A stretch of 61,835 bases of DNA, taken from the IMG/VR virus record IMGVR_UViG_3300044816_000047, positions 1 through 61,835 of that record; one strand, written 5' to 3'. Source of the stretch: a virus (taxonomy: Duplodnaviria; Caudoviricetes). The notes below the pieces were generated by a model, which ran no database searches, had not been told where the DNA came from, and was given only the letters and a program-made list of their open reading frames with translations. Below are positions 2,559-57,992 of this stretch, one piece after another (position 1 is the first letter of the stretch; the number at the start of each line of letters is the position of its first letter). The position numbers and the translations under genes were made by a program.

Positions 2559-4346
2559 ATGGGGCTCTTAGATTGGCTGACGTCGGACATCGGTAGCGGT
2601 TCGACCGGTACTGGCATTGGAGGAAATCCGATGCCGGGTTTCGACGGTGGCTCGGCCACTCCCGCTGCGCCCGCGCCAGTGCCGGGGCAGCGCAGCTTTA
2701 ACATTTCTCCGAACATCTTGCAGCGGGGCATGCAAGGTCTTGCGGGTGGCTTGGAAACGACGAAGGCCGGCATGGGTCCGGGCGAGGCGTTTGCACAGGG
2801 CCTCGGTGGTGCGCTCAAGGGCGGTGCTGCCTACGACAAGGATAAATTGGACCGCGAGCTCAAAGTTCGTGCGCTGGAGAATTCGGAAAACGACACGCAA
2901 GGAACGCTCGACTATCATAACCGAACGCTAAGTCTCCAAGAGAAAAAGGATAAGCGCGAGGCTGATCAGTTGGTAGAGCAAAGCAAAGCCGCCGCTGATT
3001 TCTCGTCAAGAATTGGCGGGATGCTTGGGACGGGCGGGCCGGCGAACCTGCCGCCGGCTTCGGGACCATCCGCGGCCCCGCGCGCGCCAGTCGCCCCATC
3101 GGCAAAAGTGTGGGGTGATGATGAGGCCGTTGCGGCTGGGCTGTACGATCCGCCGGCTACCCCCGGCGCGCGACCGCCCGTGCAGGGAGCAGGGACGCCT
3201 CCGATGCCACCTCCCGTTCCTGTGTCGCAGCCCGGCGCCGACGCACTTCCTCCAAACGCCACGCCGACGGCTGGGACCGGGATGCCGGGACCTATGACCC
3301 CGCCACCGGCACCGACGATGACTCCCGCGGTGCCAGTGGTTCCGGGCGCGGCGCCGGTGGCTCCGACGGGAGCCCCGGCCGCCGCTGCCCCGCCACAGCA
3401 ACTCACGATTGGCGCGCAGCACGTCCCGGTTCTGATCGGCGCGCTATCGAATCCGAATCTCCCGGCCGGGCAGAAGGAAGTCGCCAAGACGCTTCTGACC
3501 GAAGCCTTCAAGAATATGAAGGAGCCGGAGAAAATCCAGACGCTGCGCGCGCTCCACGCCGATCCGTCGTTGCTAGAGGTTGAAAAGCAGCTTCGATCGG
3601 CCGGAAAGACCGAGGTCAATATCGATCAGAAGTCCGAGAGCGAGTTTGCCAAACAGGCAGGCGGCACGGTCGCAAAACGCTTTGAAAAGCTGAGCGAAGA
3701 AGGGCAGAACGCGACGCAAGATATAGCATTGCTCGGCCAGCTTCGCGATCTTGGCGCGGTCGTCAAGACTGGCGCTCCGGCGGCGATCCAAGGCTGGCTC
3801 GCCGAGCGCGGAATCAAGGTTGGCAATAATGTCTCCGCAGTCGAGGCATATTCGAGCATCATTGACAAGTTGACGCCGCAGCAACGCATACCTGGGTCAG
3901 GGGCCACTTCTGATTATGAAGGCCGGATGTTCAAGAACAGTTTGCCAAAGCTGATCAATACGCCGGAGGGCAACTCGATCATCGAGAACACGTTGGCGGG
4001 TCTTTCTCAATATAAAATGGATCGCGCGGCTATCGCGGAGAAAGCGTTAACGCGAGAGATCACGCCTGCGGAAGCCCTGAAGCAAATTCGGGAAATGCCA
4101 AGCCCGTATGAGTCGTTCAACAAGTTCGCAAAGAACGGGTTTAAGGCCGATCCGAACAATCCGGATTCCGCGAAGCCGCCGGAGAAAGCGGCCGATCCAA
4201 ACGCGGCGAAAGTCGTCCCGAGCACCAAAATTGAAATCGACCAGTCACTTGCCAATGCGCGGGCGGCCATTGCCACCAATCCGGGGGCGCGATCCGGGAT
4301 CGAGCGGAAACTTAGAGACGCCGGGATCGACCCCAGTGGGCTTTGA
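2559..4346 (+). CDS. Internal virion / DNA ejection protein
   Basis: 595 aa, MGLLDWL start, Pro-rich linker, PGSGATSDYE motif typical of podovirus ejection proteins. Confidence 0.65.
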   Translation: MGLLDWLTSDIGSGSTGTGIGGNPMPGFDGGSATPAAPAPVPGQRSFNISPNILQRGMQGLAGGLETTKAGMGPGEAFAQGLGGALKGGAAYDKDKLDRELKVRALENSENDTQGTLDYHNRTLSLQEKKDKREADQLVEQSKAAADFSSRIGGMLGTGGPANLPPASGPSAAPRAPVAPSAKVWGDDEAVAAGLYDPPATPGARPPVQGAGTPPMPPPVPVSQPGADALPPNATPTAGTGMPGPMTPPPAPTMTPAVPVVPGAAPVAPTGAPAAAAPPQQLTIGAQHVPVLIGALSNPNLPAGQKEVAKTLLTEAFKNMKEPEKIQTLRALHADPSLLEVEKQLRSAGKTEVNIDQKSESEFAKQAGGTVAKRFEKLSEEGQNATQDIALLGQLRDLGAVVKTGAPAAIQGWLAERGIKVGNNVSAVEAYSSIIDKLTPQQRIPGSGATSDYEGRMFKNSLPKLINTPEGNSIIENTLAGLSQYKMDRAAIAEKALTREITPAEALKQIREMPSPYESFNKFAKNGFKADPNNPDSAKPPEKAADPNAAKVVPSTKIEIDQSLANARAAIATNPGARSGIERKLRDAGIDPSGL

Positions 4347-17342: not shown

Positions 17343-17447
17343 AATAAGTCGCGGCCCTCGTCAGGGGTGAAGATATGGGTTAAGAAGCCCTTATTTTACG
17401 GGCACTTCTTGCATTTGGTTTAGTCGGCTGTGTCAGATTTGTGCCAG
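17221..17447. other. Candidate attP with integrase arm-type repeats
   Basis: Paired YGTGYCA(G/C) repeats 11 bp apart at 17221/17232 and 17429/17440, an inverted copy at 17274-17281, AT-richer centre, at the integrase 3' end. Confidence 0.5.
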
Positions 17448-18384
17448 AAATCAGATCCGGCAGCGTCTTGTCCTCGTTAGCGTGTCCGTAGGTCTCCAGA
17501 ACGTGTCGGGCGCTCTTCCAGCCGCCCAGCTTGGCAATGGTCACAACGTCCACCCCGCGGTGCAAGAGTGCCGTAGCGAAGCCGTGGCGGCAGCTATGGA
17601 AGGTCAGGCGATCAATCTTGGCCCGTCGAACAACTGCATCCCAGACGCGGTAGCAGTTCGAGCGAGAGGTATAGAGGAAGACCGGACGATCCTTGATCTT
17701 CTCGATGTTCGCCAGCGCGACGACGAGGGGCTGCGGAAGATGCGCCCGCCGCTCGGCGCCGATCTTGGTCTGTCGGATCAGGACAGTCTTGGCCTTGAAG
17801 TCGATATCCTCCCAGCGGACCCGTAGCGCTTCAGTCACGCGGGCGCCTGTCAGGAACATGAACAAGGCCAGTCCGCCAAGGTGCGGTGTCGAGTGCTTGG
17901 CGAAGGCTTGGCACCATTCGAGGGTTGCAGGCAGTTTGCTTTTGGTTTCGACCTTGAACCGCTTCACGCGGATGCGCGGGCACATCTCGGATTCCGCGGC
18001 GTGGTTGATGATTGCCTGCATCGGGACAATGGCTTGTCGATTGCGGGTGGCCGCTGCCCCGTTCGGGTAAAGCGTCCGGGCCGCCGTCTGGATAGCGCCT
18101 GGGGTAATGTCCCGCACCAAAGTATCCTTCCAGTAGTCCTCTAACCGCTCCAGAAACCGCATCGGCTTCTTGGCAGCGCGGTACGCAATCGACGCCTGCG
18201 CGAACGTCAGGACCGCCGCGGGGCCATTGACACGACGTTTCCACGCTTTGTCCGCAATCTGGGCAGCGATTTCTGCGGCTCTTTCTTTGACCGCTGTGCC
18301 CGTAGAGCCGCGTAATCGCCCGACACCGGGAATTGTGCCCCGGTAGTGGAAGACGCCACCTCGCTTGTAGATTTTAAGGGACAT
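17380..18384 (-). CDS. int: Tyrosine integrase
   Basis: TGARVTEAL (R), K, FHSCRHGFAT (HxxR), LGGW, TYGH catalytic set. Confidence 0.95.
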   Translation of the reverse strand: MSLKIYKRGGVFHYRGTIPGVGRLRGSTGTAVKERAAEIAAQIADKAWKRRVNGPAAVLTFAQASIAYRAAKKPMRFLERLEDYWKDTLVRDITPGAIQTAARTLYPNGAAATRNRQAIVPMQAIINHAAESEMCPRIRVKRFKVETKSKLPATLEWCQAFAKHSTPHLGGLALFMFLTGARVTEALRVRWEDIDFKAKTVLIRQTKIGAERRAHLPQPLVVALANIEKIKDRPVFLYTSRSNCYRVWDAVVRRAKIDRLTFHSCRHGFATALLHRGVDVVTIAKLGGWKSARHVLETYGHANEDKTLPDLISGTNLTQPTKPNARSARKIRAS

Positions 18385-41794: not shown

Positions 41795-43576
41795 ATGGCG
41801 ATCGAACTTAAAGGTTCGCGGTATTTAACGAAGGACAATGAACCGCTCGCCGAGTTCATCACTACCCGCCTTCGCTACCTTGATTTCGTTGAGACGCTGG
41901 ACTTCTACGCGAGCATCGAGCCTGCCCTCGACGACAAGGGGCGGGCGCTGCTCAATGTGAATGACCGCTTCTACCTTCTGACCGTCACGCTGCACCGGCA
42001 GGATGCTTGGCATCCTTGGTTGTTCGAGCGCTGCCGGGAGGTCGAGGCGGCGCCGGACGACTATCTCGATCTGTGGGCGCGTGGCCACTACAAAAGTTCC
42101 ATCGGCACATTCGCCGGCATCATCCAGGAAGTGCTGATCGATCCCGAGATCACGATCGCTATCCTGTCGGGCACCAACAAGGTCGCGCTGCCGTTTCTGG
42201 CGCAGATCCAGCAAGAATTCGAGAACAACGACGACCTGAAGCGGATCCACGCTGACGTGCTGTGGCAGGAGCCGCGCAAGGAGGCCCCGCTTTGGGCGCG
42301 CGACAAGGGCATCACGGTCAAGCGCCACGGCAACCCGAAGGAAGCCACCATCGAGGCGTTCGGCGTCATCGACGGCATGCGGACCGGCAAGCATTACGAT
42401 CTGCTCGACTTCGACGACCTGATCGACGAGTCGATGGTCGACAACCCCGATATCGTCAAGAAGGTGACGCAGCGGTGGGAGTTGGCCGGCAATCTTGGGC
42501 GCCACACCAAGAAGACGCGGAAGTGGCACTGGGGCACGCGCTATTCGTATGCTGACACCTATGGCGTGATCCTCGATCGGGCCATCTTGCAGGAGCGCCG
42601 CTATCCGGCGACCGAAGACGGCACGTTGAAAGGCGTTCCGGTTCTGATGCGGCCGGAAGAGTGGGAGAAGGTCAAGCTGGCGCAGCGGTCGACCGTCGCA
42701 GCCCAGATGCTCCTTAACCCGCTCGCCGGCAACGAGAGCACGTTCACGACGCTGACGTTCAAGCATTACGACGTCATCCCGGCGATCATGAACGTCTACA
42801 TCATGATCGACCCATCGAAGGGCAAGTCGAAGCGCTCCGATCGCACCGGCATTGCGGTGATCGGGGTCGACGTCGGCGGCAACAAGTATCTGCTCGATGG
42901 CTACTGCCACCGCATGAACCTGTCGCGCCGATGGGAACTGATCAAGCTGTTGAAGAAGAAATGGTCTGACCACACCGGCGTCGCGCTGGTTCGTGTCGGC
43001 TATGAGCAATACGGCATGCAGGTCGACCTTGAAGTGCTCAAGGAGACCATGGACCGCGAAAAGAATCACTTCGAGATCGAGGAACTGAATACCACGCGGG
43101 ACGGCACGCACTCCAAGAACGATCGCATCTCGCGATTGGAGCCGGACTTCAACCGCGGTGCCTTCTACTTGCCGGCCGTGATTTACCATCCGGAGTACGG
43201 CGGTGGCCTAGCCAACCAAGCCCTGTGGGATGTTTGGACGGAAGAAGATGTCAAGCGGATGGAAGCCGGAAGCCAAAAGGACATCCCGGCCGTCGGCACC
43301 ATCGTCTATCGGCCCATGCAGGGCCCGACCAAGCAGCAGCGTTACTGCCAGGCCACGATGCAGACCTTCCGTATTGTCACCGCACTCAAGCGGATCAATG
43401 AGGACGGCGATATGTACGATCTCACGCGCGCCTTCATCGAGGAGGCCCGCCTTCACCCCTTCGCGCCGCACGACGATCTGATCGATGCGGTTTCGCGCGT
43501 TTACGATATGGAGCCAAAGATACCGATGCCGTTCGAATCCGTCCGCGCCGATCCCCAAACCTACGCGGATTCATAG
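41795..43576 (+). CDS. terL: Terminase large subunit
   Basis: WARGHYKS (Walker A variant), LLDFDDL (Walker B), GTRY, IMIDPS..SDRT, HDDLIDA nuclease motifs. Confidence 0.92.
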   Translation: MAIELKGSRYLTKDNEPLAEFITTRLRYLDFVETLDFYASIEPALDDKGRALLNVNDRFYLLTVTLHRQDAWHPWLFERCREVEAAPDDYLDLWARGHYKSSIGTFAGIIQEVLIDPEITIAILSGTNKVALPFLAQIQQEFENNDDLKRIHADVLWQEPRKEAPLWARDKGITVKRHGNPKEATIEAFGVIDGMRTGKHYDLLDFDDLIDESMVDNPDIVKKVTQRWELAGNLGRHTKKTRKWHWGTRYSYADTYGVILDRAILQERRYPATEDGTLKGVPVLMRPEEWEKVKLAQRSTVAAQMLLNPLAGNESTFTTLTFKHYDVIPAIMNVYIMIDPSKGKSKRSDRTGIAVIGVDVGGNKYLLDGYCHRMNLSRRWELIKLLKKKWSDHTGVALVRVGYEQYGMQVDLEVLKETMDREKNHFEIEELNTTRDGTHSKNDRISRLEPDFNRGAFYLPAVIYHPEYGGGLANQALWDVWTEEDVKRMEAGSQKDIPAVGTIVYRPMQGPTKQQRYCQATMQTFRIVTALKRINEDGDMYDLTRAFIEEARLHPFAPHDDLIDAVSRVYDMEPKIPMPFESVRADPQTYADS

Positions 43577-46795: not shown

Positions 46796-47832
46796 ATGGC
46801 GCAGACGACGCTTTCGGGCCCTCTCAACAACGCAGTGCCGTTCAATACCGGCGATGGCGGAGAAAACGGCCAGCATCCCAAAGAGATTATCGATGCTCTA
46901 AATACGATGCTGACCGAGCTATATGCGAGCGACACCGCAGCAGCACTGGCGTTGACGACCCAATCCGCCATCAAATTTGTTAATGTTACGATCACTACGG
47001 CGCAGTTGAAGGCATTGAACGCCACGCCGCAGACAATTCTGGCGGCGCCCGGCGCCAATCTGGCCAATGTCATCGATAGCATCGTCGCCTACAAGGCCGC
47101 CGGCACTGCCTATGCGGGCATTGCCGGCGGCGAGGACCTGTCCGTCAAATACACGGACGCATCTGGCCTTGAAGTGCTGGAGATCGAAACCACCGGGTTC
47201 CTCGATCAGACCACGGCGCAGACGCGCTACGCCTCATCCTTTGCCGCGGCGTCGGGCATTTCTTCGATCACGCCGGTTGCGAATGCAGCGATGGTCATGA
47301 TGCTGCTCTCCGGTGAAATCACCACCGGCGACAGCGATCTGAAACTTCGTGTGTACTACCGCACGGTTCCGACCACGCTATGACCACCGACATCTCCGAC
47401 AAGCCGACCACGACGGACGTCAATGTTCTCGATGCGCCGTCCGGATCGAGCGACATGGTGGTGGTGTCTCAATACACGCCGCGGCTCGATGGGCTGTTCG
47501 ATAATTTCAAAGAAGCCGATATGGCGTGTGCGCATTGGCTGGCTGCGATCTTGACAAAAGAATTCTTCGGCTACGAGTGGAAGACCGAGGCAGATCTGTA
47601 TCAGGGCGTGGTGGCGTTTAGCATCCCCGAACTCATGGGTGCCACCATGAAATGCGCGATCAACCTGCGCCGGACCGTTCTGAGCGAGAAACTGGTTCGT
47701 GACCTTGCCGGGGAATTGCTCGAACGCATGGGCCTGCCGCGTGGTCAGGTTGAGATGGCCATGGCCGTCGCCGCTCGCAAACGGCTGCACACCTTTGACT
47801 TTGCCGATGTCGGCAAGAAACGGCCCGCATAG
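46796..47832 (+). CDS. Two hypothetical virion-region proteins (46796-47383; 47380-47832)
   Basis: Coupled ORFs immediately before the portal. Confidence 0.65.
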
Positions 47833-50309
47833 TGCCCAATTTGCGAACGCAACCGTCCGGCGAGGATGGTGTAACCAATCCGCGCGCCGCGTCTGGCGAG
47901 ATCGACGAACTCGAAAATGCCGCTCAGACAGCCACGGAAGGCGACACTGACGCCGACGGTGATGATGAGTTCAACGAGAAGCCGAGCAATGACGAATTCC
48001 TGCAAATGGTGCGGGAAGCCGACCAGCAGGGCCTCTATTACTCCAATCAGGTAAATCGCCGCTCGTGGGAGCGCGTCTATCGCGCATACCACCAGGAGCA
48101 TTTTACCGGGTCGAAATACACGAGCGACGACTACAAGAACCGCTCAAAGCTGTTCATCCCGAAGACCCGCGCGGCAATCGAGAAGGATTTGGCCGCGGTC
48201 GCGGCCTCCCTGTTTGGATCGCTGGATGCCGTCAGTTGCATGCCCGGCAACGAGGGCGACGCGAAGCAGCGCGCATCGGCCTCGGTCCTTCAGGAGCTCG
48301 TGAACTACCGCACCGACGGGTCGCGCGGTAGTCGCGCGGCGATTCCGTGGTTTCACGTCGCGATGGGCGCCCGGCAGACCTCGAAGCTGACCGGCGTGTG
48401 CCTGTCGAAGCAGTCATGGAAACTGGAGCTCAAGCGCGAAGGTTCCGAAACCTTCACCGACGAGGAGGACGGCGAGGAAAAAGAGCGCGACGTTTGGAAG
48501 CCTTGGATCGATCGGCCCGACGTTCAACTGATCCCGCCGGAGAACTACGTCATCGATCCGGCGGCTGACTGGACCAATCCGGCGCAGGATGCGGCGTATA
48601 TCCTGATCAAATGGCCGATGCGGATCGACGAAATCCGCAGGAAGCAGAAGGATCCGCGCAATCCCTGGAAGGCGGTCGACGAGAATATTCTGAAATCGGC
48701 CGGCGAGGGCGCGCGGATGGAAGCCGCGGCGATCCGCCGGGCCCGCGAACAGGGGCTCGACCGCTACGACGAGAGCCAGACCGGGCCAAACTTCGACATC
48801 ATCTGGGTGTGGGAGACGTATCTGAGGACCGCCGGCGAGGACTGGACCTTCATCTCTGTCGGCGACAAGCACATGCTGACGGACCCGAAGCCGGTCTCCG
48901 AGGTGTATCCGGAACAGTTCGGCGAGCGTCCTCTGGCAATGGGCTATGGCGCCTTCGAGGCGTTCCGCATCTTCCCTATGTCGTCGGCCGAAAGCTGGCA
49001 GATGCTCCAGCAGGAGACCAACGATCTCCGTAACTTATCGCTGGATGCCATCAAGCAGAACGTCATGCCGGTCAGCAAGGTGGTCCGCGGCAAGAACGTC
49101 GACCTCGACCAGTTGAAGCGGCGCGGTCAGGGCACATCGATCATGGTGTCCGACAAGGACGACGTGACATGGGAGAAGGTCCCTGACATCTCCGGTAGCG
49201 TCATGCAGATGGCGCAGTCGATGAACGTCGAGTTCGACGACATCGCAGGCCAGCAGAATTACGGCACGGTGCAGGACAACAATCAGCTCGGCAAGACGCT
49301 GGGCGGGCTGAAACTGGCCGCCGGCGCCGCCAATGCGGTCCAAGAGTTCAATATCCGCATCTGGATCGAGACCTGGTGCGAGCGGGTTCTGTCGCAAATC
49401 GTCCGCCTTGAGCAGTATTACGAGTCCGATCCGATCGTCCTTGGCATTGCCGGCGACCGCGCGCAACTGCTCACCAAGTACGGCGTCGACGAAATCGACA
49501 ACGAGTTGTTGGAAAACACGGTCACGATCCGGGTGAACATCGGCCTCGGCGCCGGCGATCCGCAGCAGCGGTTGGCCAAGTTTCAAAGCGCGACGCAAAT
49601 CTTCCTTCCGCTCGCACAAGCGTCGAAGGAATTCCAGAGCGGTGAAAAGTCGATTGATATCGAAGCGATCATGCAGGAAATTTACGGCGGCGCGGGATAT
49701 CGCGACGGCGGCAAGCGCTTCATCAAGACTGGTCCGCCCGCCCCGAACCCGATGCAGCAACCGCAGTTGGATAAACTGATCTCGGAGACCGACAAGAACA
49801 AGGCGCTCGCCAAGAAGGCGATCATCGACGCCATGTCCGGCGCCGCAAAGGTCGGACTGTCGCTCGAAGCGCTCAAGGCGGAAACCGCCGACAACGAGTT
49901 CTGGCAGCATCTCGAACATCTCGACCAAGCTGGACGCGCGCTCGATTTGGGCCACAAGCACGGCCTGGCGATCTCCGCCCCCAAGGCTTTGCCCGGCGCT
50001 GGTGCGGTCCCTCCGGGCCCTGCTCCGGGCGAGGGAGCCGCCCCGCCGTCTGCGCCGAACAACGCTGGCGGCGGGGACGGTCTCATTGCTCCAAACAATG
50101 TCGGAGCAGGGAATGCAGGCGTCTCGCCGGCGGACCTCGGCAGACACGGAATCCCGGCGGCCGACGCCGGCCAGCAGCATTTGCAGGATCAAGCGGCCGA
50201 ACAGCACGCGATCCAGCAGTCTTTGAAGAAGCCGACCAAACGCAAAATCACCATCGCAAAGCGCGGGCCCGACGGTCGCGCCAGCGAATTCCACGTCACA
50301 GAGGAATAG
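47832..50309 (+). CDS. Portal protein
   Basis: 825 aa; RSKLFIPKTR, PENYVIDP, LQQETNDLRN, TLGG motifs of P22/N4-like portals. Confidence 0.85.
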   Translation: MPNLRTQPSGEDGVTNPRAASGEIDELENAAQTATEGDTDADGDDEFNEKPSNDEFLQMVREADQQGLYYSNQVNRRSWERVYRAYHQEHFTGSKYTSDDYKNRSKLFIPKTRAAIEKDLAAVAASLFGSLDAVSCMPGNEGDAKQRASASVLQELVNYRTDGSRGSRAAIPWFHVAMGARQTSKLTGVCLSKQSWKLELKREGSETFTDEEDGEEKERDVWKPWIDRPDVQLIPPENYVIDPAADWTNPAQDAAYILIKWPMRIDEIRRKQKDPRNPWKAVDENILKSAGEGARMEAAAIRRAREQGLDRYDESQTGPNFDIIWVWETYLRTAGEDWTFISVGDKHMLTDPKPVSEVYPEQFGERPLAMGYGAFEAFRIFPMSSAESWQMLQQETNDLRNLSLDAIKQNVMPVSKVVRGKNVDLDQLKRRGQGTSIMVSDKDDVTWEKVPDISGSVMQMAQSMNVEFDDIAGQQNYGTVQDNNQLGKTLGGLKLAAGAANAVQEFNIRIWIETWCERVLSQIVRLEQYYESDPIVLGIAGDRAQLLTKYGVDEIDNELLENTVTIRVNIGLGAGDPQQRLAKFQSATQIFLPLAQASKEFQSGEKSIDIEAIMQEIYGGAGYRDGGKRFIKTGPPAPNPMQQPQLDKLISETDKNKALAKKAIIDAMSGAAKVGLSLEALKAETADNEFWQHLEHLDQAGRALDLGHKHGLAISAPKALPGAGAVPPGPAPGEGAAPPSAPNNAGGGDGLIAPNNVGAGNAGVSPADLGRHGIPAADAGQQHLQDQAAEQHAIQQSLKKPTKRKITIAKRGPDGRASEFHVTEE

Positions 50310-53153: not shown

Positions 53154-54376
53154 CCGTTGTTAACGAGATCACACCGGAGATGGAAGCCGCCGAGCAGGAG
53201 CGGCAGAACGAGATCGACGCGCTGACCGGAGTGGAAGATACGGGGCATGAGCGCTCGCAGGATCAGCAACTCTCCGACGAAGAACCCAATATTCCCGAGC
53301 AGCCCGCGGCAAAGAAGATCCAGCAATCCCCGGCCGATGCCGAGCGCGAGCGGATCGCCAATCGTTTCAAGCGCGGCCCGGAAGACGAGAAGCCGTTCGA
53401 CGGCGACATGACCAACGAGGAGAACCTATACGGCACGTTCGCCCAGCAGGACCTCGAACCCGATCCGGACGCACCGGAGCCGGGCGTGCCCCATGTGCAG
53501 CAGGCCGAAGCGCCAGCGCCAAAAATGGTCACGCTGAAGATTCGCGGCAAAGACGTCACCATGACCGAGGCGGAAGTTCTTGCCCGCGCGGCCAAGGTCG
53601 ACGCTGCCGATTCATACCTCGAAGAAGCTCGCGAGCTTCTGAGCGAGGCTAAACGAGTAAAGGCCGAGCGTGCTGGCCGGGACCCTCAACACCCCGAGGG
53701 GCGATCAAGCACGCAAGACGACGGACAGGATATTGACCCCCTCAGTGATCCACAACACCCCGTGGATGACATCGAGGCTGTGGTTGAAAAAATCCAGTTC
53801 GGCGACCCGAAGGAGGCTGCACGCGATCTCCGGCAAGTCATTGCCACGGAGTCCCAACGGCAGGCTAACGAAGGCCATCTGCAACGGCTGGTCAGTAACG
53901 ACCTCGCTATCGCACAGAAGGCACTCGCCGACTTCACGGCCGCAAACCCTCACATTGCGAATGACCCCGATGCTTCTGTGATGATGGAAAACCGCATCTA
54001 CAGCATCTATCGCGACGAAATCGCAAAGCTGGGGGTCGATGAAGCGAAGATCCCGAAAGACCCGAGATCACTTGCCGATTGGCACCGCTGGTATCGGATT
54101 CATGGGGACAACGTGTCCAAGCCTGCCGATCTGCTTATTCAAGCAGGGAAGCATGTCGAGAGCAGGTTGTTCGCTTCAACCACCAAGCAAGCTGCAAAGC
54201 CAAAGGTCGCCGGCCGCGTCGAAGTCAACGTCGACCGGACCGAACGCCGCGCAGCTATCCCAAATCAACCCACTCGCGCCGTCGCTCCGCGACGCGACGC
54301 CGTAGCAGCGCCCGTTCAAAACCCGCGATCTGCTGCCGTCGCCGAAATGCGGAAGGCACGCGGTCAGTCTGTCTGA
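53150..54376 (+). CDS. Capsid scaffolding protein
   Basis: Acidic, VTLKIRGKD motif, helical, basic C-terminus (MRKARGQ), directly before the capsid gene. Confidence 0.75.
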   Translation: MTVVNEITPEMEAAEQERQNEIDALTGVEDTGHERSQDQQLSDEEPNIPEQPAAKKIQQSPADAERERIANRFKRGPEDEKPFDGDMTNEENLYGTFAQQDLEPDPDAPEPGVPHVQQAEAPAPKMVTLKIRGKDVTMTEAEVLARAAKVDAADSYLEEARELLSEAKRVKAERAGRDPQHPEGRSSTQDDGQDIDPLSDPQHPVDDIEAVVEKIQFGDPKEAARDLRQVIATESQRQANEGHLQRLVSNDLAIAQKALADFTAANPHIANDPDASVMMENRIYSIYRDEIAKLGVDEAKIPKDPRSLADWHRWYRIHGDNVSKPADLLIQAGKHVESRLFASTTKQAAKPKVAGRVEVNVDRTERRAAIPNQPTRAVAPRRDAVAAPVQNPRSAAVAEMRKARGQSV

Positions 54377-54412
54377 TCGCGCTGAGCGCATCACCTCAGA
54401 AGGAATATCACT

Positions 54413-57036
54413 ATGACCGGCCAAGTCTGGGCGGTTGCTACCGAAGGCGGCTATCTCTACAGCGACGAGCTGTCGACCTATCTCCGCAAGCAGGTGCAGC
54501 CCCTCACCAAGTTCCGCCAGTTGTGCGACGCCAAGGACGGCACTGAAAAGGGCCTCAACCGCGGCGATAAGTTCAACTGGAACGTCTATTCGAACGTCGG
54601 CACCCAGGGTCGCCGGCTGTCGGAAAATACGACGATGCCTGAGACCGGCTTCACTGTACTCCAGCATCAGCTTACTGTGAACGAAGCAGGCAACTCGGTT
54701 CATTAAGGGAGCCGCTTCTTTTTTGTGTGTCCTTTATGCTCCAGCCAATGACACGGCCGGCATAAAGTTTCTACGTTCTCATCATCAAATATCCGGCCTC
54801 TGTTTTTCTTGACCGGTTCAATGTGATGAACGTGATGCATCGTTGGATCAGCATCGTTCCACGGAAGACCGCACTTAGTACACTTTCTTCCGTCGCGATC
54901 GAGAATAGCATCTCGAAATTTGCCCCATACTTTGCTTGCGAAGCGACTTCGGCGTCTATGTCCGAATTTGTTTGAGAACTCTACGTGATCGAAAGACGGA
55001 TCAAACCAATCTGGATTTTGATCTTCGCGCCAATTCCAGTGTTCGTTTCCGTCCTGGAATCCCATGCGCTCAAGCGACGGATGATCGCCCTTCTTCTTTC
55101 CTGCATTCCACGCCGGCATTTTGCCGGTTTGAGTTTTGCGGCAATTGGGGTGATGGCCGCGCTTGTATTCTGGAATGAACAGATCACCCCCACCTTTGGG
55201 GTATTTGGCAAAAGCAAGGAATCGCTGACCGCACCCGCACTTGCAGGTTACGGAATAGCGTTCTCCGAACTTAATTTCTGGAATAAGCATATGGCGTTAG
55301 TAGCACGATACACACAGGAAAGCAAGAAAACCGCGTGAAACGGGGAAACTCTCTCTGAGACAATCCCGTAGGAAGCCGCCGAGGGCCTTTGGTTCGGCGG
55401 AACCTCTAACGACTAGGCAGTGAGTCCCAACAATAATCTGCCCACGAGCGCGCGGCGCGAAAGCGAAAAGATAGTCTGACCTCACGGGCGACCGTGAGAA
55501 TGCTGCGGATAAAGAGCCGCAGTGAAGAACAAGTGTCCCTACACCGGCAAGCTCTCTGCCCTCGCCAAGCAGGACGTCATCGCGATCATCGACCAGACCT
55601 TGAAGGACGATGCCCGCAAATACTTCGACATCGAGGCTTACTTGCAGTTCAAGTCGACCCCGCTCCGGTTCGCGCCGGCCTCGGGCAACTCCGCGACTGC
55701 GATCACTCTCGATACCACGGTCCAGTGCACGACCACCAACAACCTCGCGCTGGGCACCGGTCACATCAAGGCGATCGGCGACACCATGAAAGAGCGAAAT
55801 ATTGCTCCGTATATCATGGACGATTACGTTTCGATCTCCCACCCGTCGACGTATCGCGGCTTCAAAAATTCTTTGGAGACGCTTCATCAATACACGGAAA
55901 CCGGCATCGCCCATATTTTTAACGGCGAAATCGGAAGGTACGAGAGTTTCCGCTTCGTCGAGCAGACCTTCATCCCGAAGGGCGGCGCCTATGACTCGAC
56001 CACCTACGATCCGTGGAGCGGCACTGCCGACGCCTGGAACAATGCCCTCTCGTCTTGGGCATTCATGATGGGCGCCGACACCGTGGCCGAAGCGGTCTGC
56101 GTTCCGGAAGAAGTTCGGGCGAAGATCCCCGGCGACTTCGGCCGTTCGCGCGGCATCGCTTGGTACTACCTGGGTAAACAAATCTGCCCCGTCGTCGCGG
56201 AAGCGGCGAATGATAACATCGTGAACTCAGAGGAAGTCCTCGCGGCTTAATGCCGTCGCAAGGATTATTCTGATCCAAGCCTCCTGAAAGGGAGGAAGGA
56301 GCAACGACCATCCCTGAGAGGGGAGTAGGGCCAAGTGGCCCGAAGCGCGATGCACCTGACGGCTAAGACGCCAAGGTGATGATATGGTCTGAACTCACAG
56401 GTAACTGTGAGCAGTTTTGCTTCCTTCTGGAAGTTGGTAATAGACCGTGGCATACTGTAGTCATGGAAAACATCATCTTACAGAGGTTTAACGCCAAGTG
56501 GCGCTTAGACAAAAGGTCTGGTTGCTGGAACTGGACTGCATCGACGGCCGGAAAAGGCTACGGGCAGTTTAGAATTCCCGGCACTCGGAAAAACATCTAT
56601 GCGCACCGATTGTCCTACGAGATACACAAGGGTCCGATCCCGGAAGGGATTTTGGTTCTTCACTCCTGTGATAACCCCCGATGTGTGAACCCCGATCATC
56701 TCTCTCTTGGAGATAGCGGCGACAATCTCAAGGACATGGCAGCGAAGGGACGGCATCTGTTCGGAGAGCTAAACGCGCAAGCGAAGCTCACCGGGCGAAA
56801 AGTTCATGCCATCCACGACGCTGCGGCAAGAGGATCAACGCAAAAGCAAATCGCTGAAAGGTTCGGAGTTGGTCAAATGACCATCTGCCGGATACTTCGC
56901 GGCGAGCGCTGGCGTCACATCTTCGAAGCAAGACGGCGAGAGAAGTAACGCACTCTCGTGAACATGATTGGGATTCGGCATCGTCCACCCGGATGCGACC
57001 AACGCCCGCATCTGCATGTGGGACTCCGCGGCTTGA
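54413..57036 (+). CDS. Major capsid protein (N4 gp56-like), join(54413..54699,55536..56175,56971..57036), 330 aa
   Basis: Splicing restores NEAGNSV-PYTGKL and GIAWYYLG-GFGIVH in one frame (993 nt). Confidence 0.9.
54703..55290 (-). CDS. Intron-encoded HNH endonuclease, antisense to intron 1
   Basis: CKCGCG, AWNAGKK (NUMOD-like), ILDRDGRKCTKCG...HVHHI...NVETLCRPCH..EH. Confidence 0.88.
   Translation of the reverse strand: MLIPEIKFGERYSVTCKCGCGQRFLAFAKYPKGGGDLFIPEYKRGHHPNCRKTQTGKMPAWNAGKKKGDHPSLERMGFQDGNEHWNWREDQNPDWFDPSFDHVEFSNKFGHRRRSRFASKVWGKFRDAILDRDGRKCTKCGLPWNDADPTMHHVHHIEPVKKNRGRIFDDENVETLCRPCHWLEHKGHTKKKRLP
55291..55325 (-). promoter_or_regulatory. Promoter for a leaderless antisense HNH mRNA
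   Basis: TTGCTT-N17-TACTAA with a TG extension, ending 6 nt before ATG 55290; no SD. Confidence 0.55.
56176..56970 (+). ncRNA. Group I intron 2 (795 nt)
   Basis: P1 GGGU/GCCC with U56175-G56186; P10 AAUCU/GGAUU; P3 56217-56223/56346-56352; P7 GACCA 56306/UGGUC 56385; P9 GUAA tetraloop; terminal G56970. Confidence 0.92.
56463..56948 (+). CDS. Intron-encoded HNH homing endonuclease (in the P9 region of intron 2)
   Basis: GCWNWT..GYG..AHRLSYE..VLHSCDNPRCVNPDHL..DN..DM; C-terminal HTH; extended -10 TGgCATACT 6 nt upstream. Confidence 0.9.
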   Translation: MENIILQRFNAKWRLDKRSGCWNWTASTAGKGYGQFRIPGTRKNIYAHRLSYEIHKGPIPEGILVLHSCDNPRCVNPDHLSLGDSGDNLKDMAAKGRHLFGELNAQAKLTGRKVHAIHDAAARGSTQKQIAERFGVGQMTICRILRGERWRHIFEARRREK

Positions 57037-57062
57037 TGCGTATCAATATGTGAGGCGAGCAC

Positions 57063-57512
57063 ATGCCCGCTTCACGTCCAACCGAAATCCGCTTTGCGGA
57101 AAAGTATCGCGTCAACCTGAATACGGGCTGCTGGGATTGGACCGGCTCAAAGTCTCGCGGATATGGATACATCCGCGAGGCGCGAGGCGGGATGCTTCTG
57201 GCCCACAAGTTCTCCTATGAACATCACATTGCTTGCGTTCCGGCGGGTAAAATCGTTCGGCACTCTTGCAACAACAGCGTTTGTGTAAATCCAGATCATC
57301 TTCGGATCGGGACGCATGCAGACAACATGATTGATATGGCGATGGCCGGAACCCGAAAGGGGAAAAGCGGCGAGCGCACGTATCTATCAGATGATCAGCG
57401 GGAACTTGTTGTTGATGATCTTGGTAACGGGAAAACCGTTTCCGAGGTTGCTCGTGCGTATCAGGTCGACCGCAAAACCATCCGCAATATTCGCAACACC
57501 TATTGGGTCTGA
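57063..57512 (+). CDS. Free-standing HNH endonuclease, paralog of the intron 2 enzyme
   Basis: GCWDWT..GYG..AHKFSYE..VRHSCNNSVCVNPDHL..DN..DM; HTH. Confidence 0.9.
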   Translation: MPASRPTEIRFAEKYRVNLNTGCWDWTGSKSRGYGYIREARGGMLLAHKFSYEHHIACVPAGKIVRHSCNNSVCVNPDHLRIGTHADNMIDMAMAGTRKGKSGERTYLSDDQRELVVDDLGNGKTVSEVARAYQVDRKTIRNIRNTYWV

Positions 57513-57527
57513 AAGGACACCACTAAA

Positions 57528-57992
57528 ATGAGCTACGATATCCCGTCTCTGAGGGAGGTTTACTACCTTCCTTCCAGCGCGTATGGCGCGACTACCGCGT
57601 CCAAGACCATCATGGGTCCGAAAGGCAAGAAGGGCATTGTCACCGACATTGTTGTTCTGCTTTCAGCGGACAACGTTGGCACCACCACGGTCCCGGAGGT
57701 CACTGTCGGTTCGGCTGCGGGTCTTGTCGAGTATGCCCGCTTCCGTCTCGGCACCACTGCGACGGCCGGTTATGCCGCAGCCAATACACCGTTCCGCGCT
57801 CGCGCGCTGACGGCAACGGCGCAGGGCAACACCGGCGGCGTTGTGCCGACGTTGGTCGATTTCGCGGGGCACGTTCTCCTCGAAACCGCATCGATCCCGG
57901 CGGACACCGCGATCGTCATCAGCGGCAAGGCTGGCGTCGGCGGCACTCCCGCCGGCACCTTTGAAGCCTACGTTCACGTCCGTTGGGACTAA
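57528..57992 (+). CDS. Capsid-associated/decoration protein (putative)
   Basis: Beta-rich, T/G/A-rich, SD aagga, first structural gene after the capsid. Confidence 0.6.
   Translation: MSYDIPSLREVYYLPSSAYGATTASKTIMGPKGKKGIVTDIVVLLSADNVGTTTVPEVTVGSAAGLVEYARFRLGTTATAGYAAANTPFRARALTATAQGNTGGVVPTLVDFAGHVLLETASIPADTAIVISGKAGVGGTPAGTFEAYVHVRWD

Follow-up and report, generated by a model that had tools for sequence, protein, structure and literature searches.

An inverted HNH endonuclease gene packed into the P1 and P2 elements of a predicted group I intron in a phage capsid gene

The stretch of DNA analysed here, referred to as the window, is the complete 61,835-bp record IMGVR_UViG_3300044816_000047 of a virus of the Caudoviricetes, with direct terminal repeats at its ends. 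The major capsid gene within it is interrupted twice, in both cases by group I introns, and our subject is the first of these, intron 1, together with the gene for an HNH homing endonuclease that lies inside it, antisense to the capsid gene. An earlier note on this DNA, made from its letters and a list of its open reading frames (ORFs), had described the anatomy of this antisense gene, and that anatomy is confirmed by the results below; the interpretation that the note placed on it is supported in part. The coordinates of the features are collected in Table 1.

The HNH ORF opens at the ATG at 55290, which is the first start codon past an in-frame stop, and its product matches Pfam PF01844 over residues 137–186 (E=6.2e-9; 36.3 bits against a cut-off of 21.4) as well as 19 HNH-type families in PHROG, down to 2e-14. 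In a profile comparison, the closest match among solved structures is the HNH endonuclease 5h0m (E=9e-10). A large protein collection holds 53 homologues, the closest being 84%, 79%, and 67% identical, and those at 84% and 79% identity are themselves intact. An N-terminal CxCxC...YKRGHHPNC cluster precedes a core with two CxxC pairs and a His/Asn/His set, and the alignment of 20 family members contains 30 invariant columns, including C137, C140, H156, N172, C177, C180, and H181. As read from these features, the gene is intact and of the expected kind. The proposal of a minus-strand HNH ORF is thereby borne out by the ORF list, the Pfam match, and the 53 homologues, and a chance antisense ORF is ruled out by the family matches taken together with the homologues.

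The gene that starts at 54413 is assigned as the major capsid gene. Because exon 2 has no match among PDB sequences (phmmer), the assignment rests on gene order, a weak match of exon 2 to Pfam Phage_capsid_3, its match to the PHROG annotation "major head protein" (E=1e-5), and homologues, such as the uninterrupted 317-aa gene in the capsid position of Vibrio phage D279 (48% identity to the window capsid). A blastn search with 54300–56300 found no match in the phage collection, and the capsid junctions were set by tblastn against 36 IMG/VR relatives plus the D279 homologue. The first junction can be assessed in 35 of the IMG/VR relatives, with L013 lacking exon 1. It reads without interruption (...NS-V-PYTGK...) in 33, while two carry an insertion there, of 963 nt in L017 and 662 nt in L037. 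Removing intron 1 restores the capsid frame, as exon 1 + GT|T + exon 2 matches the uninterrupted homologues, and the predicted spliced junction reads ...AACUCGGU|UCCCUACACC. The three capsid exons add up to 993 nt, which makes 330 codons and a stop.

The inverted arrangement is not peculiar to the window. A metagenome scan with the HNH alignment gave 58 loci, the best 36 of which (L039–L074) are members of the family; no relative came out of IMG/VR when the HNH protein was used alone in a peptide-pattern scan. Capsid exon 1, exon 2, or both are present in 35 of these 36 loci (both exons in 22, a single exon in 13), on the strand opposite to the HNH gene in 35 of 35, and the order is constant, the HNH start being preceded by exon 2 and the HNH stop followed by exon 1. 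The one locus too short to include an exon, L041, has blastn matches to the intron core and P1 on the opposite strand. Within IMG/VR, L017 carries a homologous HNH gene antisense at the same capsid position. In the other 22 of the 58 loci only the C-terminal HNH domain of different proteins was matched, except in L092, which holds a fragment of the window HNH family beside exon 1, again on the opposite strand. Identity to the window falls as low as 33% for the HNH protein and ∼37–45% for the capsid exons across this set. The distribution carries a signature of mobility: the capsid site is empty in 33 of 35 IMG/VR relatives and filled with the HNH family in the 36 metagenomic loci and L017.

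Nine of the loci (L058, L059, L062–L066, L070, L072) have the intron and its antisense HNH gene 8 nt upstream of the window site, inserted after the GGT of Gly, not the GT of Val. The exon sequence at this shifted site, GAATTCGGT, mimics AATTCGGT of the usual site, which suggests that the element moved to a look-alike target in these nine loci.

Inversion also extends beyond the HNH family, as is seen from antisense LAGLIDADG ORFs in L017 (1904–2725, within an intron near codon 7 at 1671–2737; Rfam 47.2 bits) and L027 (3392–3832, within a capsid intron at 3251–3937; Rfam 38.7 bits). Sense-strand LAGLIDADG ORFs are found in L037 at the site of window intron 1 (755–1282) and in L057, L063, L070, and L074 at codon 35/36, and sense-strand HNH_3 ORFs in window intron 2, L026, L047, and L074. 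Since capsid endonuclease ORFs run in both directions across the family, orientation is a stable property of each intron–gene lineage. The L037 capsid gene (L037:219–2160) has at least four introns, and one interruption of its exon 2 holds two adjacent Rfam matches (1576–1835 and 1908–2124).

The boundaries of intron 1 carry the marks of group I splice sites. P1 pairs exon CGGU and intron UC with the strand of the internal guide sequence (IGS). Among 26 non-redundant loci with the intron, the base before the 5′ splice site is U without exception, and 25 have a 4-bp complement of the IGS, with a G·U, inside the first 50 nt. A G stands at the inferred 3′ intron end in all 27 loci that include the exon 2 boundary. 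The exon and the IGS change together in relatives, giving the pairs CGGU/GCCG, CCGU/GCGG, GCGU/GCGC, and GGGU/GCCC. A capsid gene split by a free-standing HNH gene with no intron is ruled out by the ribozyme core, the U·G and terminal-G boundaries, and the covariation.

P1 together with the following CUUCUUUUUU (54696–54724, + strand) is also flagged as resembling an intrinsic terminator on the capsid sense strand, and several relatives likewise show U-rich runs 3′ of P1. The U-run in the window is the 5′ strand of P2, and P2 formation could sequester it.

A ribozyme core can be folded in the 3′ part of intron 1, and its helices are supported by covariation. Six cores were aligned, namely those of the window, L017, L039, L068, and two ORF-less introns of L037. 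RNAalifold on this alignment yields P3, P4, P5, P6, a hairpin between P7 and P3′, P8, P9, and P9.1, with P7 added as a pseudoknot; subgroup IA typically has such an extra hairpin between P7 and P3′. Over 11 helices with 51 pairs, 95.1% of 305 cells are paired, against 33–42% when the partners are slid by 1–3 columns, and compensatory change on both sides is seen at 25 of the 51 core pairs. Shuffles match the core values in 0 of 500 cases on four measures and in 3 of 500 on a fifth; with six related cores this control overstates significance, and the slid control is the fairer one. The five pairs of P7 are neutral evidence, because they are invariant across the aligned cores. A two-strand cofold of 54688–54745 with 55291–55540 recovers P1, the long P2, and the core helices.

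Relatives tie this core to the Rfam group I family. The two related ORF-less L037 cores pass the Rfam threshold (54.5 and 53.2 bits), and of 17 relatives with the intron at the same site, RF00028 matches 15, in each case on the strand that does not encode the HNH protein. Of these 15 matches, 13 score at least 50 bits. The relatives that it misses, L039 and L068, both have the core type of the window. The same-site HNH family is linked to two core types whose 3′ halves can be aligned: the type of the window, L039, L068, and L017 has a short P4–P5 (GUGAAACGGGG...) and is missed by Rfam, and the type of L040–L070 has the common GAAUUGC P4 and is detected. The 590-nt insertion in P2 and the short P4–P5 may be the cause of the miss. 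Judged by its predicted fold and boundaries, intron 1 is a group I intron despite the Rfam miss.

A long-range stem that loops out the ORF had been claimed at 54714–54730 and 55310–55323; it is present in a slightly different register, 54715–54730 with 55310–55326, where the cofold gives 15 pairs, one mismatch, and one bulge. When windows are taken at 5-nt steps along the intron, those that pair best with the P2 5′ segment start at 55296–55311, where the proposed P2 3′ strand lies. Judged by eye, a stem is also possible at the P2 position in L017 and L068, with different sequences.

The 3′ end of the HNH gene runs through these same elements. Its stop codon is the complement of 54703–54705, inside the P1 loop and 3 nt inside the intron; the Pro-Leu-Arg codons (R-L-P of the tail) are the complement of 54706–54714, covering the P1 loop and guide strand; and the Lys-Lys-Lys-Thr-His-Gly codons (G-H-T-K-K-K) are the complement of 54715–54732, the P2 5′ strand. 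The last nine codons and the stop, that is, cross the P2 5′ strand, the IGS, and the P1 loop, and the statement that they are the complement of the stem and of P1/IGS stands on a direct reading of the sequence. Because the stop lies 3 nt inside the intron, a full-length HNH messenger RNA (mRNA) necessarily includes the complement of 54703–54730, and with it that of the IGS and the P2 5′ strand. Translation running on from exon 1 on the plus strand meets an in-frame TAA at 54704–54706 and ends there, two codons into the intron. The two stops share the palindrome TTAA at 54703–54706, which serves the HNH gene on the minus strand and exon 1 read-through on the plus strand; L017 lacks this two-strand stop.

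How closely the gene abuts the guide was tallied in 26 non-redundant loci that include the 5′ splice site. The HNH stop lies in the P1 loop in 18, past the splice site in exon 1 in two, and 7–17 nt short of the guide in five; in the remaining one the guide complement was not recognised. Since the ORF ends before the IGS in five of the 26, the overlap is frequent but not obligatory. The frame of the C-terminal tail differs as well, with ..KRLP in the window and ..GGSV in L017. We see in these observations a gene crowded up against the 5′ boundary of its intron, with a tail that would tolerate what the RNA needs, and the sequence shared with P1 and P2 is best read as compaction in which RNA structure constrains a tolerant protein tail. 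The view of it as a "triple-use" sequence selected as a device is not supported by the five relatives that stop before the IGS.

Evidence that the HNH gene may have a promoter of its own comes largely from the relatives. No Shine-Dalgarno sequence precedes the ATG at 55290, and the candidate −10 box TACTAA has a TG one base upstream, in the extended −10 position. In relatives aligned at the start codon, a conserved CCTG (the complement of P2 CAGG) is followed after 0–12 nt by a TAnnnT box. We scored 25 non-redundant upstream regions, drawn from 32 with at least 45 nt upstream; left out of the count were L061 and L074 (uncertain start or truncation), L054, L072, and L073 (start off the contig), and L046 (little upstream sequence). 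The best −10 score averages 5.53 over the 25 regions and 4.2 over shuffles, with 0 of 2000 shuffles reaching 5.53. A score of at least 5 is reached by 17 of the 25 upstream regions and by 3 of 25 control windows taken from within the ORF.

Two classes can be told apart by how far the best −10 box lies from the ATG. The distance is 4–14 nt in nine loci (window, L039, L040, L042, L057, L060, L068, L069, L071), one of which has a Shine-Dalgarno sequence, and 19–42 nt in 16 loci, 12 of which have one. Within the short class, the eight relatives have the box 4–10 nt from the ATG. The best box of the window is 14 nt away, and its TACTAA, the homologous one, 6 nt. In L017, scoring from the first ATG hides a perfect TATAAT placed 7 nt before the next in-frame ATG. 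The two classes resemble what would be expected of leaderless and leadered versions of a single promoter–gene unit. Since the structural module is on the + strand, there is no other minus-strand gene near the HNH gene from which read-through could come. Past the HNH stop, no terminator-like site is found on the minus strand for ∼890 nt, until about 53811, so that an HNH transcript, if made and not stopped in some other way, would extend antisense across exon 1 as well.

Table 1. Features of the interrupted capsid gene, of intron 1 and its antisense HNH gene, and of other genes in the window; intron and helix assignments are predictions.
Feature	Position	Strand	Remarks
Capsid exon 1	54413..54699	+	ends ...N-S and GT of Val; ORF list, tblastn
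Group I intron 1	54700..55535	+	836 nt; U54699 before it, G55535 its last base
P1 hairpin	54696..54714	+	CGGUUC 54696-54701 pairs with GAGCCG 54709-54714; U54699·G54711 wobble; loop AUUAAGG
HNH homing endonuclease gene	54703..55290	-	195 aa, ATG; in P2 loop
P2 5′ strand (U-rich)	54715..54730	+	two-strand cofold
P2 3′ strand	55310..55326	+	ACACACAGGAAAGCAAG; its minus strand overlaps the -35-like TTGCTT (55320-55325)
Candidate -10 TACTAA	55297..55302	-	TGc before it; 6 nt to ATG
Alternative -10 TATCGT	55305-55310	-	14 nt to ATG
-35-like TTGCTT	55320-55325	-	17-nt spacer to TACTAA, containing TGc
Ribozyme core	55331..55535	+	RNAalifold, pair counts, cofold
P3	55331-37/55449-55	+	ribozyme core
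P4	~55343-46/55364-67	+	ribozyme core
P5	55350-53/55357-60	+	ribozyme core
P6	55370-83/55393-405	+	ribozyme core
P7	55411-15/55472-76	+	added as pseudoknot
Extra hairpin between P7 and P3′	55416-20/55438-42	+	ribozyme core
P8	55456-58/55463-65	+	ribozyme core
P9	55481-87/55492-98	+	ribozyme core
P9.1	55503-08/55517-22	+	ribozyme core
Capsid exon 2	55536..56175	+	T of Val, then PYTGK ... AWYYLG
Group I intron 2	56176..56970	+	Rfam RF00028 58.3 bits, 56166-56411; exon 3 match in relatives
HNH_3 + helix-turn-helix (HTH) endonuclease ORF in intron 2	56463-56948	sense strand	Pfam, PHROG matches
Capsid exon 3	56971..57036	+	GFGIVHPDATNARICMWDSAA, stop; tblastn to relatives
Free-standing HNH_3 + HTH ORF	57063-57512		paralogous to the intron 2 ORF; begins 27 nt past the capsid stop; Pfam, PHROG
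Integrase gene	17380-18384	-	
Large terminase gene	41795-43576		
Portal gene	47832-50309		

With the ORF of intron 2 and its free-standing paralogue, the capsid locus of the window holds three endonuclease genes inside 2.8 kb. The phage is temperate, and the integrase gene listed in Table 1 lies on the minus strand.

Taken together, we consider it probable that intron 1 is a mobile group I intron which carries an inverted HNH gene with its own promoter, packed into P2 and P1, and which spreads by homing. The HNH gene would fill the P2 loop opposite the capsid strand, its 3′ end running back through the P2 5′ strand and P1/IGS. The late capsid transcript holds only the antisense of the HNH gene and therefore cannot encode the endonuclease. 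Transcription would instead start at a promoter of host type whose spacer and −35 region lie over the P2 3′ strand, and the resulting mRNA is probably leaderless or nearly so. The targets of the enzyme would be capsid alleles that lack the intron, which it would nick or cut near the point where exon 1 meets exon 2, and repair from an intron-bearing copy would spread intron and gene jointly. Inversion would uncouple endonuclease expression from the very strong late transcription and translation of the capsid gene, and in the sense pre-mRNA ribosomes would be kept off the ribozyme, with the TAA stopping translation after two intron codons. The results show the anatomy, its conservation, the intact catalytic residues, and the polymorphism between filled and empty sites; the use of the promoter, leaderless translation, the cleavage target, and why inversion would be selected are parts of this scheme that we infer.

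Several results weigh against this reading. Intron 1 is not matched by RF00028 at its gathering threshold (50 bits), and a search at E≤10 of 54300–57700 (3.4 kb) and of the core alone again leaves it unmatched, with only intron 2 found. (The entries adapt33_2, eeev_FSE, and Methylosinus-1 appear near intron 1 in the Rfam search and are rejected as low-scoring chance matches far under threshold.) The P2 duplex is unexceptional in its stability, as 51 of 500 mononucleotide shuffles are equally stable. The promoter hexamers of the window are poor: TTGCTT and TACTAA each agree with the consensus at 3 of 6 positions, TACTAA lacks the final T, and TATCGT scores a weak 4.23. A sigma-70 consensus scan of the minus strand upstream of 55290 called no promoter, the upstream regions of the relatives show no conserved −35, the −10 scoring matrix is approximate, and sigma-70-type rules may not be those of the host. 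The suggestion of a leaderless promoter 6 nt before the ATG is therefore upheld in part. The hexamers are there, relatives have a −10-like box, and a Shine-Dalgarno sequence is absent; on the other side, the hexamers are weak and the scan did not call them. A promoter of its own, probably leaderless, is proposed for the HNH gene on the basis of the relatives and not of the weak hexamers in the window.

Other readings of the same locus differ in what the antisense gene does, if it does anything. One is that it is a silent or decaying passenger, whose promoter has degenerated and whose ORF, no longer expressed, has not yet been disabled, the intron being kept by splicing alone. The −10 of the window is indeed the weakest among close relatives (TACTAA/TATCGT compared with TATAAT, TATACT, and TATAGT), and repeated gain and decay is what textbooks describe for endonuclease genes of this kind. 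We nonetheless hold this to be unlikely, considering that the ORF has its full length and retains every invariant zinc and catalytic residue, that the homologues at 84% and 79% identity are intact too, and that a TG occupies the extended −10 position before TACTAA. We judge it quite unlikely that the gene acts, as the earlier note suggested, as a regulatory antisense, in which the HNH mRNA would pair with the IGS, P1, and the P2 5′ strand, or transcription would collide, to throttle splicing and capsid output, the overlap itself being selected. A complete HNH mRNA does carry the complement of 54703–54730, the ORF reaches or passes the IGS in 20 of the 26 non-redundant relatives, and the ∼890 nt past the stop are free of minus-strand terminator-like sites. 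The five relatives whose ORF ends 7–17 nt before the IGS speak against such selection, the difference in tail frame between the window (RLP) and L017 (GSV) fits a constraint at the RNA level alone, and capsid mRNA would generally be expected to far exceed the output of a weak promoter.

The nuclease might also serve as a weapon in competition, made early or from the prophage and cutting the capsid gene of co- or superinfecting intron-less phages, with homing as a by-product. The window encodes an integrase, an inverted gene is independent of late transcription, and the accessible text on PhiPA3 reports that an intron endonuclease interferes with a competing phage (PMC11620839). This idea is compatible with homing by a mobile intron and does not exclude it, and taken as an explanation in its own right we regard it as very unlikely. 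A further and more speculative scheme, to which we give little credence, would join these elements: the leaderless P2 unit would be an autonomous one, expressed while the capsid operon is silent, whether early in infection or in the prophage state, and would act against intron-less relatives; at the onset of late transcription its mRNA would cover the 5′ splice site for a time, making homing or exclusion and capsid production exclusive of each other in time.

A standing question for elements of this type is how a selfish endonuclease can be expressed without harm to the splicing of an essential, highly expressed host gene. The known answers in phages are timing and the translational control of sense-strand ORFs. 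The lineage of intron 1 represents a different and apparently stable solution, made up of inversion, a probable small promoter in a ribozyme helix, and a tail shared with the guide, and it retains this layout in capsid genes whose identity has dropped to ∼40–50%. Its 38 loci, with leaderless-type and Shine-Dalgarno-type versions, form a natural test system in which orientation can be set against ribozyme folding and antisense transcription against splicing, and in which the part of prophage-expressed intron nucleases in phage competition can be addressed. The locus is also a warning for annotation: Rfam missed intron 1, and gene callers would yield a split capsid gene and an unrelated-looking HNH gene on the reverse strand.

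The mycobacteriophage LittleE offers a close parallel. The available text of the Cluster J mycobacteriophage study describes an 819-bp probable group I intron in its capsid gene, with splicing demonstrated by reverse-transcription polymerase chain reaction and N-terminal sequencing, and places an endonuclease gene on the bottom strand of this intron, as in the window (PMC3706429). In GenBank JF937101, LittleE gene 14 accordingly lies on the minus strand within the two-exon capsid coding sequence. The placement of an antisense endonuclease gene in a phage capsid intron is thus not new. The premise of the earlier note that phage intron endonucleases are normally encoded on the sense strand holds in general, but with LittleE already showing a bottom-strand gene the surprise is smaller. 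The two genes are unrelated: gene 14 is described in that text as LAGLIDADG/I-CreI-like with an HNH-like C-terminus, and the same text contains no promoter analysis (PMC3706429). LittleE is also not among the four tblastn matches. Unlike in the window, the Rfam-like core of LittleE lies 5′ of the gene (30.7 bits, L097:559–762), and its ORF ends ∼220 nt from the 5′ splice site, with no overlap of P1/IGS. In the open full-text literature, with subscription journals and supplements outside that scope, LittleE is the only case found of an antisense endonuclease gene in a bacterial or phage group I intron, and a word search of the accessible text of a 2014 review of bacterial group I introns gave no antisense or orientation terms (PMC3984707). 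A widespread lineage with a fixed inversion, an ORF ending in P1, and a small promoter at P2 appears to be undescribed.

In the rDNA (ribosomal RNA gene) of Didymium iridis, a group I intron likewise carries an endonuclease gene in antisense orientation, that of I-DirII, whose family is not the HNH type of the window. The host gene there is ribosomal RNA, and the problem solved is one of translatability and not of timing. According to the part of the I-DirII report that is accessible, this eukaryotic nuclear gene is expressed from its own promoter, which is an RNA polymerase II promoter, and carries a spliceosomal intron and a poly(A) tail, unlike the gene in the window (PMC3073962).

The introns of T4 td (I-TevI), the SPO1 DNA polymerase gene (I-HmuI), and Pf-WMP3 (I-PfoP3I) resemble intron 1 in being IA-type phage introns with the ORF looped out from a peripheral helix. 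I-HmuI is an HNH nickase, and the expression of I-TevI is under translational control; Gibb and Edgell reportedly described in 2010 a conflict between translation of an intron ORF and folding of the ribozyme. I-PfoP3I is given as an HNH nickase in the accessible text of its report (PMC3428280). For sense-strand intron ORFs, the accessible part of a review of T4 mobile elements describes expression from the host-gene transcript or from internal middle and late promoters, with translational control, and mentions antisense orientation solely for the free-standing segD (PMC2988022). The ORFs of td, SPO1, and Pf-WMP3 lie on the sense strand of their introns, whereas the HNH gene of the window lies opposite to its host gene and needs to be transcribed separately.

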